Shown: piece after piece, positions 27,001-39,000 of the stretch
Layout: each line of letters begins with the position of its first letter
Numbering within the stretch: position 1 is the stretch's first letter
Assembly: GCA_002719295.1 (NCBI GenBank)
Contig: PBHC01000016.1
Location: forward strand, 1 to 64,000
Source of the DNA: Chloroflexota bacterium
GTDB lineage: Bacteria > Chloroflexota > Dehalococcoidia > Lucifugimonadales > Lucifugimonadaceae
Direction of reading: 5' to 3'
Length of the DNA: 64,000 bases
Position numbers: made by a program

Positions 27001-30000
27001 TACAGAATTTTCTATAATTTCTGCACTTTCATTTTCTCCAAGATGTTTCATCATTATTCCAGCTGTTAGTATTTGAGCCATAGGGTTTGCTATACCTTTA
27101 CCTGCAATATCTGGTGCTGAACCATGAGTTGGTTCAAACATTGATGGACTCGTTTTTGTTGGATCAATATTTCCACTAGAAGCTAATCCCATAGATCCTG
27201 TAATAATTGCTCCTATATCTGTTAGAATATCTCCAAAAAGATTACTTGCTACTACTACGTCAAAGTTTTGTGGCTTTCTTATGAAGTCCATACATGCAGC
27301 ATCAATTAATAATGAATCTGTTGTAACCTGAGGGTAATCTTTTTTTACTTCCTCAAATGTTCTATCCCATAGAACCATTGAATATCCTTGAGCGTTGGAT
27401 TTAGTTATTGAAGTTAGATGCTTCTTTTTGTTTCTTTCTATTGCTAACTCAAATGCAAATCTTATAACTCTTTCACAACCTTTTCTTGTAAACACTGCAC
27501 TTTGAACAGCAACTTCATCAGGGAATCCTTGATATTGAAATCCTCCAACATTAGCATATTCTCCTTCAGTGTTTTCTCTTACCACGACAAGATCTATATC
27601 ATATGGCTTTAAGTCTTTTAGAGGAGTATTAACTCCTGGATATAATACAGATGGTCTTACACATGCAAATTGATCGAATGCTCTTCGGATTGGAAGAAGT
27701 AATCCATTTAGAGTTATATGATCTTGAATATCCGGGTGTCCTACGGCTCCTAAGAAAATGGCATCAAAAGATTCTAATTGTTCAATCCCATCTTTAGGCA
27801 TCATAATCCCATTTTTAAAATAATATTCTGAGCTCCAGTCAAATTCATGAAAATCAAGCTTGTAATCTTTGTTTTTTTCTAAAGCCTTTAGAACTTCAAT
27901 AGAACTATTAACTACTTCTACACCAATTCCATCTCCTGGAATTACGGCTATTTTATAAGTTTTCATATATTTTCTCCTAATTTTGCTTCTCAATTATTTG
28001 AATTATTCCAGCCATATCATCCATTTCTTTTCCATCTTTTTTTAGTTCATCATATAATTTTTTTGAAGTTTTTGTTAATGGTAAATTTACTGATAAATCT
28101 TTTCCTAATTGATCTATTATAGAAATATCTTTATGTAAGTTTCTTGCTGGTACAGGAGAACCTTTAAATTTCCTGTCCCTTATTATAGGAGCACATCTTT
28201 CTAACATTCTTGAATAACCAAAGCTAACCTGTAATATTTCCATTGCAGAGTCTATGTCAACATTTGTGGCATTTGTTAATGCAAGGGCTTCTGCTGCTGC
28301 AGTTGTGTGTACAGCAGTTAGTAGTTGATTAATTAATTTCATAGATGTTCCTGATCCGCTATCACCCATATGTTTAATTGTCGTCCCCATCATTTTGAAA
28401 TAATTTAAGGCAGCATTATATGCTTCTTTATTTCCTCCAACCATAATAGATAATGTTCCATCATTTGCACCAACTGGTCCTCCTGATATAGGAGCGTCAA
28501 GAAAATCAGAACCTTTTTCTTTTGAATATTCAAAACATTTTTTAGATGTTGAGAGGTCTACGGTAGAGTGGTCTATAATGATTTTTTTATCATTAGTATT
28601 AGACAAGATTCCTTCTTTTCCTGTTATTATTTCAATTGATGTTTCAGTATCAGGTAGGCATGTCAAAATTATGTCGCATTTCTCTGCAAGTTCTTGAATA
28701 GAAGAAGCTCCTTTTGCCCCAACTTTCTCCATAGCAATTATTTTTTCTCTACTTCTTGTGTAAACAGTAAGATCAGCTCCTTTTTCAAGTAGATTATTTG
28801 CCATACCTTGACCCATGTTTCCTAATCCTATAAATCCTATCTTATTCATATCTAACCTCAATCTAAATTTGTGTTTATATTTTTAATTAATTTTTTTATA
28901 CTTTCCTTAATTATCTCGTGTGAATTTGCAGCGTTATGTGGGGTAAGTATAACATTGTGTAAGCTTTTCAATTGATTATTTTTTGATAGTGGCTCATTTT
29001 CAAATACATCTAATGCAGCTCCTGCAATTTTTCCACTAACTAATGAATCATATAAGGCCTTTTCATTTATCAACTTTCCTCTAGCTGTATTAATTATGAA
29101 AGCATTTGACTTCATCCTTGAAAATTCATTTGAACTTATTAAATATTCAGTTTCTTCTACAATTCTAGTATGAAGAGTTATTACGTCAGAGTTTTCTAAA
29201 AGATAATCTAATTCAGAAACTTTTCCAAATTCTTGAAAACTTAATGTCCTTACGTTATCCATTCGGATTACAGGAGTAACAATGATATTCATGCCTAAAT
29301 TGGAGCCAATTTTGGCAACTTTTTCTCCAATTGCTCCTGCACCAACTATACCTAAAGTTTTCCCTTCAAAAAGATCAACTTCAATTGATGGCCATTCGTT
29401 ATTTCTTACTCTTCTATCTAACTCAGGAATTTTCTTTAATAATGAAATCATTAAACCGATTGAGTGTTCAGCAACAGAATTTGTTAATATATCAGGAATG
29501 TTTGAAACAATAATATTGTTTCTTTTTGCAGAATCTACATCTATATGATCTAAAGCTATTCCAAAAACAGCTATATGTTTTAAGCTTGGTAAGCTCTCAA
29601 TTATATTATTATTTATTTTTGTAGTTGCTTTAGTTATGACAGCTGTGTGAGCATCATTTAATCTTGATAGAATTTCTCTAGAATCAGATGGTAATGATCT
29701 GAAAACTTCTATTTCATTTTCATTTTTCAAATCATTAAATAATGAAGGATCATATGAAACTACCTGAGGTTCGTCATCAACTATTACTATTTTGGACATT
29801 ATAAAAAAACTCCAGTGAAAATTCTATTATAATGTTCTTATCATCTATAAAAAACATTATTTCATGTCAGCATATAAAATTTTATACTGGAAAGAAATTC
29901 CTACACAACTAAAATTTAAAGATAATGAAGGAAATGAAGGCTCATATCCACTTAGTCTGTTTTTTCAAACAGCAATAGATGCTATTGCTATGCATGATGG

Positions 30001-36000: not shown

Positions 36001-39000
36001 AAAGTCTGTGGCATTCGATCCTTTATTACAACCAGGAAAAATAATTGATAACGTAGAAATCGTATCTTTTGAAAATTTATTGAAAGATTCTGATTTTATT
36101 ACAGTTCATGTCCCGTTGAATGAAAAAACACATCATCTTTTCTCTGAAAATGAATTTAATCAAATGAAAAATAACGCAATTCTAGTTAACTGTGCAAGAG
36201 GAGGATTGATTGATGAAAATGCAGCCTCAAAAGCACTTTCAAAAGGTCAAATAGGAGGAGTTGGATTAGATGTTATTGAAGATACTTCTAATTCTCCTTC
36301 AAGCCCTCTATTTAATAATGAAAATGTGATAATTACTCCACATACAGCTTTTTTCTCTAAAGCCTCAGGTGAAGAACTCCAAAAAAGGACAGCAGAAGAA
36401 ATTGTTAGAGTTATAAATAATGACAAACCTGAAAATTTTATTAACCCTGAAGTTTTAGGAAACACTAGGTCTAATATAAGTTAATTTTCTAGAGTCATTT
36501 GCCCTTGGTTATCCTCAGATTTTTTGTTTAAAATTTGTTCGTCTATTACTTCTTCAATTATTGATACATCAAGAGCTTTATCAGGGTTTTTATCAAGTTG
36601 TGTTTCAAGATCCTTAACTGTACTAAATTTTTTATCTAATGCTTTTCTTCTTCTTCCTTCCAAATATTCAAAATGAGTCGTTGCTGTTTTTAATGCTCTG
36701 CTAACAACTGACTGTTCTTCAACATAATTATCCCATTCTTTTTTTAGTTCATCTAAAATAGTCATGATTTGATTTTGGTTTTCTCCTATAGTTACAACTT
36801 TCATAAATTCTTTTATAACTCCCACAACTAAGAGTAAATTTCCAGGAGAAGTTATAGTAACTTTTTTACTCTGTGCATATTGAATTAGATCCATTCTTTT
36901 CTCGTATATAAATGAGAGAATATGATCACTAGGAACAAAAACAATTACGTTATCAAGAGTATTTTCTTTTGTATTAATATACTTATTTCCAACTTCATCA
37001 ATTATTCTTTTTAGAGAATCAAAAAATTTTTTCTCCCTATTCTGTATATCAACTATTTCATTATCTTCATCCATAAGAGGTTGGAAATATTCCCATACAA
37101 ACTTTGAATCCATATGTATTACTTTGCCATCAGGTAGATTTATTGTGAAATCAGGTCTGGTACCATTTTCTAGTACTTGTTGGGTTTCATACTGGACACC
37201 CTTAATAAATCCTGCGCTTCTAAAAATATCTTCAGCCATAAGTTCTCCAAGTTGTCCTCTGGTTTGACTTCCAGATAGGACATTTGTAAGTTTGCTAAAT
37301 TCATCTTTAGCTATATTTATCGCTTCTTCTGTACTTTTATTTTGTTTTCTTAATAGATCATTTGTAGTAACAAGCTTAACTGTTTCCTGCATAGTTTTAT
37401 CGTATTGTCTTGTCATCAAATCTTTTACTGTTTGTAAATCTTTATTAAACTTTTCATCTTTTTCAGAAAGCAATTCTTTTACCTTACTTTGAACTCCCTC
37501 TTTTGTTTCATCTGCAAATTCTTTAAATTTTAACCCTGAAAAATATTTTGAAAATCTAATAAAGAATAGTATTGAGATTCCTGCTAGTGAAAAAATTAGG
37601 ATTATTAACAAAAAAATTATAGTTAAATTGAATGCATTCATAAAGTTATTCTAAATCATCGTATAAGATAATTTTAGAGTTTTTATATAAAATAAGTCAA
37701 ATTACATTTTTGCTTGTTATAACGATTAAGTGGAATATATAAGTTAGAATATAACTATGCTAGAAAAAACTCCTGATTATAGAGAATATTTTAATATTGA
37801 CGATAATATTTCTTACTTAAATAGTGCTTATATGGGTTTATTGCCTAAAAGTTCCGTTCAAAAAGGTAATTATGGTTTTGAATTAAAATCTAAATCATGG
37901 GAAATACAATGGAATGATTTTTACGACAAACCTGAAAATACGAGAAAATTATTTTCTAAATTAATTAATGCAGATAATGATTCAGTCTTTTTCGTTCCTT
38001 CTGCAAGTTATGGTTTTTCAGTATTTGCTAATAACTTTAAATTAGACCATCGTAAAACAATCTTGCTTCTGGAGGAAGAATTCCCTTCAAATGTATGGAT
38101 ATGGAAAGAGCTCGCAAAAAATCAAAATGGTAATGTAAAGTTTGTTCGAAGACCTGATGATGATGATTGGACATCTGCTATCTTGAATGACTTAAATGCT
38201 GATACTGCTTTAGTATCTGTTCCAAATTGTCACTGGACGGATGGAGGATTAATTAATTTAGAAATACTTTCTAAAGAATTAAGAGAAAAAAATATTTCAC
38301 TAGCAATTGATGGAACTCAATCAGTTGGGGTAATGCCTATAGATTTACAGAAAATTAAACCTGATTTTATGGTTGTATCTGGATATAAGTGGTGTTTAGG
38401 TCCTTATAGTTTGGGCTTAGCTTACATAGATAGTAAATACCATTCAGGAGAACCTATTGAATATAATTGGTTATCAAAATTACCAATGCCTGCAGATAGC
38501 AAGTTTCCTGACATGACTGCTTATGATGAATTTGAGTTTGAAAATGCTAGAAAATTTGATTTTGGACAGAGAGGTAATTTTCATTTAATTCCAGCTTTAG
38601 AATCATCATTGCAATTGATAACAAATATAGGACCTGAAAATATCTATAAATATGTTGATAACCTAAATGAGGAAATCATAAAATCTACTTCAGAAATGGG
38701 ATTTTCTAATATTGTTAGAAATCTTAGAGCGAGGCACTATCTTGGGTTAAGATTTGAAAATGAAATCCCAAATAATTTTGTTGAAAATTTAGCTAAAGAA
38801 AATGTATTCATAAGTGCTAGGGGGAAAAAAGCAATTAGAGTTACACCACATATATGGAATAATCTAAATGATATAGATAAATTTTTAAATGCCTTGAAGA
38901 GAGTTTTATAACATGACAATTATTATTACAGAAGATCAAGTAAAAGAAATATTAAGTGTAGACACTACGGTAGATTTATTAGAAGAAGCTATGAAGTCTA

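Follow-up and report, generated by a model that had tools for sequence, protein, structure and literature searches.

Eight co-directional ORFs occupy positions 29864-36484 on the + strand of contig C16, within a window of 64,000 nucleotides (Table 1). These coordinates match the genome-wide survey's note exactly, and Pfam and NCBIfam profile searches confirmed the domains that it had given for an eight-gene cassette. Neighboring ORFs overlap at start and stop in three places (by 16, 14, and 8 nt) and are otherwise separated by 7-53 nt, an arrangement that fits a single operon. The sign of the GC skew flips at about 29.5 kb and again at about 36.5 kb. RNA-library contigs from two marine studies, with 95-100% likeness, span the g01127/g01128 and g01129/g01130 junctions, which is no proof of transcription.

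Table 1. Genes of the corrinoid methyl-transfer cassette
Gene	Assignment	Length (aa)	Position	Strand	Evidence
g01125	PF13769 ('Virulence_fact') protein, first cassette gene	110	29864..30196	+	PF13769 E 2.6e-8, 34.5 bits (cut-off 25)
g01126	Stand-alone homocysteine S-methyltransferase module, MtgE/Bmt-like	307	30181..31104	+	PF02574 E 6e-59
g01127	Family-less putative partner protein of URO-D methyltransferase	214	31091..31735	+	Predicted complex, adjacency
g01128	MtaA/CmuA-family URO-D zinc methyltransferase	342	31751..32779	+	PF01208 E 4e-65
g01129	Corrinoid (B12) carrier protein with cap domain	247	32833..33576	+	PF02607 E 1.7e-20, PF02310 E 3.7e-28
g01130	Four-Cys protein	92	33584..33862	+	8-nt overlap with RACo start
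g01131	RACo/RamA-type ATP-dependent reductive activase, N-terminal 2Fe-2S ferredoxin domain	543	33855..35486	+	PF14574 E 1e-67, PF17651 E 4e-40, PF00111 E 1e-6
g01132	D-2-hydroxyacid dehydrogenase, last cassette gene	329	35495..36484	+	PF02826 + PF00389

The survey had also reported that the order and neighbors of the cassette are conserved. We searched related loci by tblastn and, for the 47 whose 10-kb flanks were complete, counted genes on the same strand as g01127. The gene order is retained in all 47. Genes for the URO-D enzyme, the corrinoid protein, and g01130 accompany g01127 in every one, the homocysteine methyltransferase in 46, the PF13769 protein in 45, RACo in 38, and the 2-HADH, downstream, in 34. 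Relatives of g01127 are encoded in 386 genome stretches by our count, where the survey had given 370 species genomes. What was observed directly is gene content, domain and motif composition, conservation, and co-occurrence; from these we infer by homology and gene context all functions assigned to the cassette, including each activity, the direction in which the URO-D enzyme works, and its substrate.

This tiny marine SAR202-type bacterium appears to obtain methionine from a B12 enzyme that is split into separate proteins. The genome has a single PF02574 gene, g01126. Among PDB entries, the protein best matches the Hcy domain of MetH from T. maritima (1q7m, E 5.8e-50), and its GTNCG and GGCCGT motifs align with the Cys motifs of MetH. 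It is probably the acceptor-side methyltransferase that produces methionine. g01129 combines B12-binding_2 and B12-binding domains, contains a D-x-H-x-x-G motif (GDLHDIGKN), and scores 212.6 bits against the MtgC-type model, under the cut-off of 370. The second B12-binding protein in the genome is a CarH-like regulator, which makes g01129 the sole methyl-transfer corrinoid protein. g01131 has a Fer2, RACo_middle, and RACo_C_ter (DUF4445/RACo) architecture and scores 322.7 bits against the AcsV model, under the cut-off of 800. The homology of these three proteins supports the survey's proposal of a disaggregated, RACo-reactivated methionine synthase. Its report that the genus lacks MetE and a MetH reactivation domain also held, as PF01717 and PF02965 each matched in 0/13 genus genomes (own bin 81% complete, four bins at least 90% complete). 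The cassette is thereby supported as the only recognizable methionine synthase among these 13 genomes. In all 47 full-flank loci, the gene for g01130 separates those for the corrinoid protein and RACo; Pfam and NCBIfam searches assigned g01130 to no family. Its residues C40, C49, C55, and C70 are invariant in 90/90 aligned orthologs, in the context R-C-P-Y-K ... C-x-A-x-F-x-C ... C-x-G ... D-Y-R-x-A-W. It may be a metal-binding helper of activation.

Modular corrinoid systems of this kind have been published from roseobacters as split MetH (Price 2018) and MtgBCDE (Mausz 2025). In Phaeobacter, genetic evidence identified PF02574, B12, PF00809, and Fer2-DUF4445 activase proteins as the methionine synthase (PMC5764234, in excerpt), and in Ruegeria the same architecture both makes methionine and demethylates betaine, with mtgD adjoining metF2 (PMC12478193, in excerpt). 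The cassette differs from these hubs in that the place of MtgB is taken by an MtaA-like URO-D enzyme and the family-less g01127. DUF1638, which is needed in Phaeobacter, is absent from 13/13 genus genomes. A Phaeobacter homolog of g01126 forms methionine directly from DMSP or betaine in vitro, free of cobalamin (PMC12366255, in excerpt), so g01126 may not always need the carrier.

A folate module that the survey had missed lies on contig C12. It comprises a 332-aa PF00809 methyl-THF:corrinoid methyltransferase (NF005719, 185.5 bits; matching MetH residues 376-600) encoded directly after an MTHFR-like gene. The module was found in 13/13 genus genomes, and the pair is kept and adjacent in G036 (same genus, 97% complete) and G085 (same family, 95% complete). 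Because g01129 is the only methyl-transfer carrier in the genome, the C12 enzyme must serve the cassette. Among 101 genomes of the order, 50 encode g01127, and 38 of these have an ortholog of the pterin-binding methyltransferase. The ortholog lies at most 11 kb from g01127 in 33 of the 38; among 18 fetched order-level regions that bear it, 17 place it immediately 3' of the URO-D gene. No pterin gene is found within the cassette in this genus or in 46 of the 47 full-flank close relatives.

The genome encodes no URO-D protein other than g01128, the most strongly conserved member of the cassette (62-92% identity across the family); a tandem URO-D duplication occurs in 3/97 loci. g01128 passes the TIGR01463 MtaA/CmuA model (242.3 bits, cut-off 235.4) and PRK06252 (266.4 bits, cut-off 244), and its best PDB match is MtaA (4ay7, E 6e-51). 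In the alignment with MtaA, H237-x-C239 and C315 fall on its LHICG and APGCG motifs, and all three residues are invariant in 26 orthologs. In the UroD superfamily, a His-Cys-Cys zinc site marks S-methyltransferases, and O-demethylases carry carboxylates (PMC10418091, in excerpt). We infer that g01128 is a donor-side (MT1) enzyme whose substrate would be a methylated S or Se compound, the zinc site being the one pointer to it. In relatives, an SBP_bac_5 ABC transporter borders the cassette, but the genus has no such neighbor and no obvious substrate importer. The genome has no DmdA-type enzyme; its sole GCV_T protein is GcvT, encoded beside GcvH.

Genomes that lack the folate enzyme bear on the direction of the URO-D step. 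Twelve of the 50 g01127-positive genomes have no pterin ortholog, as scored by one protein query, with the PF00809 profile applied in five genomes only. Five of the 12 have a full MetH, four a strong MetE-type gene, two only weak PF01717 matches, and one neither family; this last genome is closed and 99% complete, and FolP is its only PF00809 protein. In pterin-less cassettes, the URO-D and homocysteine enzymes are the only methyltransferases acting on the carrier, so the donor must be one of these two. On metagenome contigs, genes of a sister subfamily of g01127 precede a URO-D gene (61-65% identity to g01128), after which come, in order, the carrier, g01130, RACo, an MTHFR fusion, and a pterin methyltransferase. 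Upstream, these contigs encode a divergent GntR/FCD regulator and PurU; no convincing homocysteine module was found on them. This layout is that of a catabolic demethylase feeding folate C1 oxidation. The pterin-less cassettes, the sister-clade layout, and the predicted complex described below lead us to favor a donor-side role for g01127 and g01128. The survey had made the pair the synthase's own donor half; the donor-side role stands as the favored one, but the folate module in every genus genome argues against the rest of that claim.

It seems unlikely that the pair instead works on the acceptor side, passing the carrier's methyl group (from methyl-THF) to a thiol, as MtaA does with coenzyme M, and yielding a methylthio product or relief of a methyl-folate trap. 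The closest characterized relatives, MtaA and MtbA, are methylcobamide:thiol methyltransferases, and where a folate donor is present, as in 38/50 genomes, the URO-D enzyme could be acceptor-side. However, MtsA-type relatives work in both directions, pterin-less cassettes would be left with two acceptors and no donor, and the PurU, MTHFR, and GntR genes of the sister clade point to methyl-group oxidation rather than thiol methylation.

We regard as quite unlikely a folate-independent synthase whose sole methyl supply comes from g01127 and g01128 stripping a methylated thiol such as methylmercaptopropionate. The His-Cys-Cys site of g01128, the cassettes free of a pterin gene in this genus and its close relatives, and the 12 pterin-less genomes, including the closed one, would agree with it. 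Against it stand the C12 pair in all 13 genus genomes, whose methyltransferase has no other corrinoid partner in the genome, and the proximity of the pterin gene to g01127 at the order level.

g01127 had no match in Pfam and NCBIfam searches. The survey's values (79 homologs, pLDDT 87, pTM 0.79, VIA Z 7.1 over 87 residues) were reproduced: none of 79 database homologs has a real Pfam domain, the AF2 model (pLDDT 87.8, pTM 0.80) has two alpha/beta halves and a flexible tail, and the fold search gave no significant match, the best VIA Z being 7.1 over 88 residues. The longest of 245 representatives at E<=0.001 has at most 276 aa. C13 is invariant, and the tail motif G-Q-M/L-(T/N)-T-x-(T/S)-L-G-F occurs in 99/100 orthologs; tails are clade-specific (GQMTTQTLGF versus RGVLxAPSAQ). 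Models built from alignments made in this analysis predict that g01127 and g01128 form a complex (ipSAE 0.87, 0.89, and 0.88 in runs versus 0.01 for the best control), with contacts agreeing by at least 78% between runs and partner pLDDT of at least 88. The ipSAE mark was reached by 116/157 solved complexes and 2/215 mismatched pairs. The predicted interface joins H204, C239, and C315-320 of the URO-D enzyme to residues 200-212 and C13 of g01127, which would bring the conserved C-terminal tail to the zinc site. URO-D interface residues are invariant at 24/40 positions, versus 137/342 over the whole protein.

A tail lodged in the active site could equally signal inhibition. g01127 might be a non-catalytic plug, chaperone, or regulator that sits in the active site of the URO-D enzyme and is displaced by a signal or by the carrier, which we consider distinctly improbable. 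In the model, the tail touches the zinc ligands C239 and C315. Residues 207-214 are disordered in the monomer (pLDDT <50), and Met205 is replaced by Leu in 2/100 orthologs, so it is not itself the methyl donor. However, the two genes are strictly 1:1, adjacent, and co-conserved in 47/47 full-flank loci, and clade-specific tails fit a specificity-determining subunit equally well; the two roles are compatible.

With moderate confidence, we read the cassette as a modular corrinoid methyl-transfer hub, the methionine synthase of the genus, in which a folate module and a donor-side g01128/g01127 pair load the same carrier. g01129 would carry methyl groups between separate methyltransferases. De novo methyl groups would come from methyl-THF through the pterin-binding methyltransferase and the MTHFR-like enzyme, encoded on C12 in this genus and in the cassette in most relatives. 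The g01128/g01127 pair would be a third, donor-side methyltransferase, with the tail at its zinc site, that loads the carrier from a small methylated sulfur (or selenium) compound. g01126 would move the methyl group from methyl-Co(III) onto zinc-activated homocysteine to give methionine. g01131 would use ATP and an electron to return oxidized Co(II) to Co(I), probably assisted by g01130. Scavenged methyl groups could thus enter methionine and, via the folate module, the C1 pool.

A dedicated selenium role, in which the pair demethylates dimethylselenide or methylselenol and frees selenide for selenoproteins, appears highly improbable. Such a role has been suggested for the type 1 mlp clusters of anaerobes, and a preprint describes an Mlp2 that methylates selenide, with reference to genetic evidence from Methanococcus voltae (PMC10418091, in excerpt). 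The His-Cys-Cys site suits Se, the window holds a tRNA-Sec, and the genome encodes SelA. However, SelA exceeds its cut-off in 86/101 order genomes with or without g01127 and so provides no contrast, G036 and G085 keep the cassette with no SelA seen, and the cassette has a single URO-D gene rather than an Mlp2 and Mlp3 pair.

The methyltransferase and corrinoid domains of CmuA are fused, and cmu clusters carry purU and MTHFR beside the methyltransferase genes. A methyl halide donor (chloro-, bromo-, or iodomethane), as used by CmuA of aerobic methylotrophs, is very improbable here. In its favor, g01128 passes the MtaA/CmuA model, the sister clade has purU and MTHFR similarly placed, and MtgC of roseobacters has been described as close to CmuA (PMC12478193, in excerpt). 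Nothing speaks specifically against it, but the effector of the divergent GntR/FCD regulator would more likely be an organic acid than a gas, and the domains are separate proteins that need g01127.

The cassette opens with g01125 and closes with g01132. g01125 (AF2 pLDDT 91.8) had no match in fold (best VIA Z 2.8) or PDB sequence searches, and no longer fused form was found; W9, K10, E11, P13, Q15, D45, G46, and S47 are invariant in 20 orthologs. The best NCBIfam match of g01132 is PGDH (253 bits, under the cut-off of 454), and it is the most PGDH-like of eight paralogs in the genome.

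The genome-wide survey's note had described eight co-directional genes for corrinoid-dependent methyl transfer, and we recovered this cassette as eight plus-strand open reading frames with identical coordinates. Neighbouring genes either overlap at their start and stop codons (three cases, 16, 14 and 8 nt) or lie 7-53 nt apart, as in a single operon, and the sign of the GC skew flips at both ends of the block. The genome (1.27 Mb in 20 contigs, 81% complete, about 30% GC) has its closest relatives in records labelled SAR202 cluster, Dehalococcoidia or Chloroflexota. The stand-alone homocysteine module g01126 carries the zinc Cys triad in the motifs GTNCG and GGCCGT, which match the Cys motifs of MetH in an alignment to 1q7m, and D-x-H-x-x-G is visible in translated g01129. 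Contigs from RNA libraries of two marine studies matched positions 31252-31896 (g01127 into g01128) and 32843-33652 (g01129 into g01130) with 95-100% likeness, where DNA carry-over is possible; no significance attaches to regions that such contigs do not cover. Rfam searches at the gathering threshold found no riboswitch within the window, and the gap upstream of g01125, only 64 bp, is too short for one.

Features of the cassette, its surroundings and related loci (C4 and C12, other contigs of the same genome; L numbers, fetched stretches)
Feature	Location	Strand	Length	Assignment and score
Cassette g01125-g01132	window 29864-36484	+
g01125		+		PF13769 (Pfam/NCBIfam)
g01126		+		stand-alone homocysteine module; PF02574 E 6e-59
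g01127		+		no family (Pfam/NCBIfam)
g01128		+		URO-D; above MtaA/CmuA family model TIGR01463, 242.3 bits vs cut-off 235.4
g01129		+		stand-alone corrinoid protein; B12 cap PF02607 + B12-binding PF02310
g01130		+		no family (Pfam/NCBIfam)
g01131		+		Fer2 + RACo_middle + RACo_C_ter; PF00111, PF17651, PF14574 (DUF4445)
g01132		+		D-2-hydroxyacid dehydrogenase, 2-HADH (Pfam/NCBIfam)
Divergent three-gene block	window 26905-29799	-		directly upstream of cassette
tRNA-Sec	window 52763-52851	-		68.4 bits
tmRNA	window 2322-2678	+		151.9 bits
C12 pterin gene	C12:49975-50973, outside window		332 aa	PF00809 E 2.7e-19
MTHFR-like + pterin gene pair	C12:49185-50973 (L002:453-2241)
CarH-like/XRE-type protein	C4:23349-24239 (L180:2349-3239)	-	296 aa	CarH-like B12-binding region + XRE-type HTH
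Variant cassette, labelled Acidobacteriota	L083:6000-17751
Adenylosuccinate-lyase-family gene, closed genome G040	L104:12921-14279	+

We examined the conservation of the cassette around g01127. None of its 79 homologues in a 90%-cluster database has a real Pfam domain, and 386 species-genome stretches encode a relative. Where the 10-kb flanks are complete (47 loci), tblastn placed the URO-D gene, the corrinoid protein and g01130 on the same strand as g01127 in every case, the homocysteine module in 46, PF13769 in 45, RACo in 38 and 2-HADH in 34; gene order was conserved in 47/47. The full set of 80 loci, many of which are truncated at contig ends, gave counts of 79 (URO-D), 75 (corrinoid protein), 73 (g01130), 76 (homocysteine module), 69 (PF13769), 58 (RACo) and 48 (2-HADH). 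At several loci (L062, L064, L068, L070, L047 and others) the gap between g01127 and the URO-D gene holds insertions: DNA methylase-nuclease fusions, DUF433/DUF5615 pairs, AbiJ-like genes and DUF4268. Within the operon, this gap seems to be a preferred insertion site for selfish or defence genes. We rejected these genes as clues to the substrate, since they are mobile or defence cargo (DNA methylases, toxin-antitoxin-like pairs, AbiJ-like). The variant labelled Acidobacteriota lacks the homocysteine module, has MetV-like and MetF genes upstream and the pterin gene within, and carries a second, weak URO-D gene and a second corrinoid protein in its downstream part.

The survey's note had read the cassette as a disaggregated methionine synthase with its own donor-side methyltransferase. 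That interpretation is supported in part, but it overlooked a folate module on C12. Besides FolP, encoded on contig C8, a PF00809 profile search of the genome returned a C12 gene for a methyl-THF:corrinoid methyltransferase (the pterin gene). Its product covers MetH residues 376-600 and scores 185.5 bits against NF005719, below the cut-off of 259. The gene begins two bases past the stop of a gene for a 262-aa MTHFR-like protein that scores 24.6 bits against PF02219 (cut-off 24), with only model positions 68-226 aligned. This protein may belong to a diverged methylene-THF reductase family; a truncated MetF relative of similar kind, whose function is not known, is discussed in PMC7857596. The pair is kept, and adjacent, in one same-genus and one same-family genome. 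Canonical MetF was not found in G036 (same genus) or G085 (same family).

We traced the position of the pterin gene in relatives. It is present in 13/13 genus genomes, always on a contig other than that of g01127. In a sample of 101 genomes from the order, g01127 occurs in 50, of which 38 have a pterin orthologue (E ≤ 1e-83); in 33 of those 38 a single contig carries both, no more than 11 kb apart. Twenty regions were fetched, 18 of them picked for the nearness of the two genes and hence a biased sample; in these 18 the pterin gene directly follows the URO-D gene in 17 and lies 7 kb further on in the remaining one; the corrinoid gene comes after it in 13. The common form of the cassette therefore has nine genes: PF13769, homocysteine methyltransferase, g01127, URO-D, pterin methyltransferase, corrinoid protein, g01130, RACo and 2-HADH. 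One genus additionally has an MTHFR gene within the cassette. In the window's family the pterin gene has moved elsewhere.

Besides g01129 the genome encodes only one B12-binding protein, an HTH-containing CarH-like regulator. With no second carrier, the C12 pterin enzyme must work on g01129. The CarH-like/XRE-type protein on C4, whose gene adjoins an ACR3 arsenite efflux gene, is possibly a B12- or light-responsive regulator in a B12-dependent genome.

The survey's further claim, that the cassette is the only methionine synthase of its lineage, stands for the genus and family: PF01717 and PF02965 were each found in 0/13 genus genomes, four of them bins at least 90% complete. It does not extend to the order, where MetH occurs in 21/101 genomes and PF01717-family genes in 81/101. 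Having no other recognisable route to methionine, cells of this streamlined genus depend on vitamin B12 through the cassette. SAR202-type bacteria abound in the ocean.

The URO-D protein g01128 aligns over its full length with MtaA of M. mazei (4ay7, E 6e-51). H237-x-C239 and C315 fall on the MtaA motifs LHICG and APGCG, and all three residues are invariant in 26/26 orthologues (62-92% identical). The protein is above the PRK06252 cut-off (266.4 bits vs 244) and below the equivalog cut-offs for MtaA and MtbA (238 vs 400 and 199 vs 600). The Kountz and Balskus preprint (PMC10418091) gives the His-x-Cys...Cys residues as zinc ligands and states that His-Cys-Cys marks UroD-superfamily S-methyltransferases, whereas O-demethylases have carboxylates. 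By analogy, the zinc site of g01128 points to a sulfur or selenium substrate. We found no other URO-D family gene in the 81% complete bin, so HemE went undetected there.

We looked for folds and partners of g01127. Its model (pLDDT 87.8) has two alpha/beta halves and a flexible C-terminal tail. A fold search gave no significant match (a urea amidolyase domain came closest, with VIA Z 7.1 over 88 residues), an ESM Atlas search gave a best score of 0.82, within noise, and a PDB sequence search returned nothing for g01127 or g01125. No fused form was seen among 245 representatives, the longest of which has 276 aa. C13 is invariant, and 99/100 orthologues carry the motif G-Q-M/L-(T/N)-T-x-(T/S)-L-G-F in the tail, with its Gln in 99/100 and its Met in 98/100. 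Complex prediction for g01127 with g01128 scored 0.87, 0.89 and 0.88 against 0.01 for the best control, with contact agreement between runs of at least 78% and partner pLDDT of at least 88; this mark was reached by 116/157 solved complexes and 2/215 mismatched pairs, a calibration that applies roughly because we used our own alignments. The predicted interface joins H204, C239 and C315-320 of g01128 to residues 200-212, C13, L16, S18 and M19 of g01127. Invariant positions make up 24/40 of the interface on the URO-D side (137/342 overall) and 7/28 on the g01127 side (26/214 overall). The model supports binding of g01127 to g01128, and it fits a specificity subunit and a plug equally well. Met205 of the tail was ruled out as a methyl donor, because Leu takes its place in 2/100 orthologues.

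Two lines of comparison favour placing the putative URO-D/g01127 pair on the donor side of the carrier. The first is the set of genomes without a pterin gene. By search, the pterin orthologue is absent from 12 of the 50 g01127-positive genomes of the order; five of these have full MetH, four a strong MetE-type gene, two only a weak PF01717 match and one neither. The last is closed and 99% complete, and its sole PF00809 protein is FolP, encoded next to FolK. In pterin-less cassettes the carrier is served by the URO-D enzyme and the homocysteine module only, so one of the two must load it. The URO-D enzyme could still be an acceptor where a folate donor is present.

The second line is a sister subfamily of g01127, recovered by profile search, which lacks C13 and has the tail RGVLxAPSAQ. 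In sister loci of at least 3.5 kb, all on metagenome contigs, a URO-D gene 61-65% identical to g01128 is directly next in 31/35, followed by the carrier, g01130 and RACo; nine loci of this set have the pterin gene downstream. The 24 loci of at least 6 kb include a divergent GntR/FCD regulator in 15, PurU in seven and an MTHFR-MTHFR_C fusion in four. The homocysteine module (at least 40% identity) appears once among the 24, at a contig end. Judged by gene content, this layout is that of a putative inducible demethylase supplying folate C1 oxidation. We also asked whether the URO-D/g01127 pair could itself be a methyl-THF enzyme, since MetF occurs without a pterin methyltransferase in the closed genome G040. 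We rejected this option because the zinc site is conserved and of the thiol type, and MetF can probably serve other folate demethylases.

The flanking genes offer some hints about the substrate. In the sister clade, the GntR/FCD regulator may indicate an organic acid, which would suit methylmercaptopropionate. The block upstream of the cassette encodes a tartrate-dehydrogenase-like Iso_dh protein (TIGR02089, 488 bits, above cut-off), a 2-hydroxy-3-oxopropionate-reductase-like (HIBADH-like) enzyme and a second 2-HADH. A large marine clade has the cassette flanked by a divergent block of 2-HADH, an SBP_bac_5 ABC transporter, the HIBADH-like reductase and the tartrate-dehydrogenase-like enzyme; the latter two each occur in 32/102 related loci, often together with the transporter. 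The window's genus keeps the dehydrogenases and lacks the transporter. This block could be a hydroxy-acid pathway tied to the cassette, or plain inherited synteny. DmdA was rejected for this genome, where no DmdA-type enzyme was found and the only GCV_T protein is GcvT. A bolder reading, which we hold tentatively and consider rather unlikely, is that g01127 and g01128 form a heterodimer that supplies the methylthioether:corrinoid methyltransferase so far missing from bacteria, with a new two-protein active site, feeding the methionine and folate pool of SAR202. Such an enzyme would demethylate methylmercaptopropionate, dimethylsulfide or methanethiol outside methanogens. Its zinc pocket would be shaped by the C-terminal tail of g01127, and DMSP-derived methyl groups would pass straight to the methionine and folate pool of these abundant bacteria.

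A selenium substrate was considered because of the tRNA-Sec gene in the window and the mlp preprint (PMC10418091). SelA is encoded on contig C9 and is above cut-off in 86/101 order genomes, so near-universal that co-occurrence gives no contrast for a selenium link. It was not found in G036 (97% complete) or G085 (95% complete), both of which keep the cassette. Selenocysteine use may vary within the lineage.

We compared the cassette to known corrinoid methyl-transfer systems. Methionine synthesis in Phaeobacter was shown genetically to use separate PF02574, PF00809 and B12 proteins with a Fer2-DUF4445 activase and DUF1638 (Price et al. 2018, PMC5764234); in Ruegeria, carrier MtgC and the bidirectional pterin enzyme MtgD, encoded beside metF2, serve both MtgE methionine synthesis and MtgB betaine demethylation (Mausz et al. 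2025, PMC12478193); and the Phaeobacter homocysteine module can reportedly also use DMSP or betaine directly (FEBS J 2025, PMC12366255). In many marine genomes the roseobacter-type system is found in place of MetH and MetE (PMC12478193; PMC5764234). Like MtgBCDE with RamA, DUF1638 and MetF2 in Ruegeria pomeroyi and the three-part split MetH of Phaeobacter inhibens, our system has a separate homocysteine module (MtgE/Bmt), a capped corrinoid protein (MtgC), a pterin module (MtgD, here on C12) beside a metF paralogue and a Fer2 + DUF4445 activase. It would also share a single carrier for methionine synthesis and a substrate-specific donor methyltransferase. From its sequences, the cassette is the roseobacter split-MetH/Mtg design with three differences. 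First, the proposed donor belongs to the MtaA-like URO-D zinc enzymes, not to the MttB family of MtgB, and has g01127 as a new, presumably obligatory partner; PF06253 was not found in the 81% complete genome. Second, DUF1638 (PF07796) is absent from the cassette, and a match at E ≤ 0.01 was obtained in 0/13 genus genomes. Third, the MtaA-like enzyme has new companions, and the four-Cys 92-aa protein (g01130) and the PF13769 protein stand in place of DUF1638. The phylum also differs, being Chloroflexota here, with the sister form on planctomycete-like contigs. The available text of PMC12478193 makes no mention of SAR202, Chloroflexi, MtaA or URO-D.

The Methanosarcina enzymes MtaA, MtbA, MtsA and MtpA, soluble methylcobamide:coenzyme M methyltransferases, share with g01128 the URO-D fold (about 32% identity), the His-x-Cys...Cys zinc site and a separate corrinoid partner reactivated by a RamA-type enzyme. 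MtsA and MtpA take methyl thioethers as donors. Unlike them, g01128 is bacterial, lies outside a coenzyme M context, is predicted to need g01127 and would pass its methyl group to homocysteine or folate. The Cmu chloromethane system of aerobic methylotrophs (CmuA/CmuB, metF, folD, purU) likewise has an MtaA/CmuA-family donor domain and a pterin-binding second methyltransferase, and its MTHFR and PurU neighbours recur in the sister clade. CmuA joins its methyltransferase and corrinoid domains in one polypeptide, and to our knowledge the Cmu operon has no RACo. Unlike the cassette, the Cmu system lacks the homocysteine module and g01127.

Type 1 mlp clusters, as described in PMC10418091, combine MtaA-like His-Cys-Cys enzymes with a corrinoid protein and a bacterial RACE/Ram activase. 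They often lack a folate methyltransferase, and a methyl-sulfur or methyl-selenide role has been proposed. These clusters need both Mlp2 and Mlp3, whereas the cassette has one URO-D gene, with a second, tandem copy in 3/97 loci. Their hosts are obligate anaerobes, mostly Firmicutes, and no homocysteine module, g01127, g01130 or PF13769 is described for them there; 'Chloroflex' has no match in that text, and 'homocysteine' occurs only as S-ribosyl-homocysteine lyase in a figure legend.

No description of the cassette, g01127 or PF13769 was found in the literature searched, subscription journals and supplements lying outside it. Our analysis adds the relocated folate module of this genus, the pterin-less phyletic pattern, the catabolic layout of the sister clade and the predicted tail-in-active-site complex. 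The cassette brings the roseobacter hub of one carrier and several methyltransferases to another phylum, where the proposed donor enzyme differs, and adds three protein families without known function (g01127, g01130, PF13769). It is also a clonable candidate for the cobalamin-dependent removal of methyl groups from small sulfur compounds outside methanogens, a step to which we know of no genes ever assigned. Should the substrate be identified, meta-omic data could show how methyl groups and sulfur flow through SAR202.

The accessory genes gave further observations. The model of g01125 (pLDDT 91.8) matched no solved fold (best Z 2.8), and no fused form was found among longer proteins. The four Cys of g01130 are invariant in 90/90 orthologues, and its gene overlaps the start of RACo; we infer that it is a metal-binding helper of activation. 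In the closed genome G040, the adenylosuccinate-lyase-family gene adjoins a pterin-less cassette; in this one genome it scores 388.6 bits against the XcbD coenzyme M synthesis model (below the cut-off of 600) and 422.3 against an adenylosuccinate lyase subfamily (below 626). A gene with any resemblance to bacterial coenzyme M synthesis is a curious neighbour for an MtaA-like enzyme. Finally, among the eight 2-HADH paralogues in 1.27 Mb, g01132 comes closest to PGDH (252 bits vs a cut-off of 454), and is possibly tied to serine-derived C1 supply.
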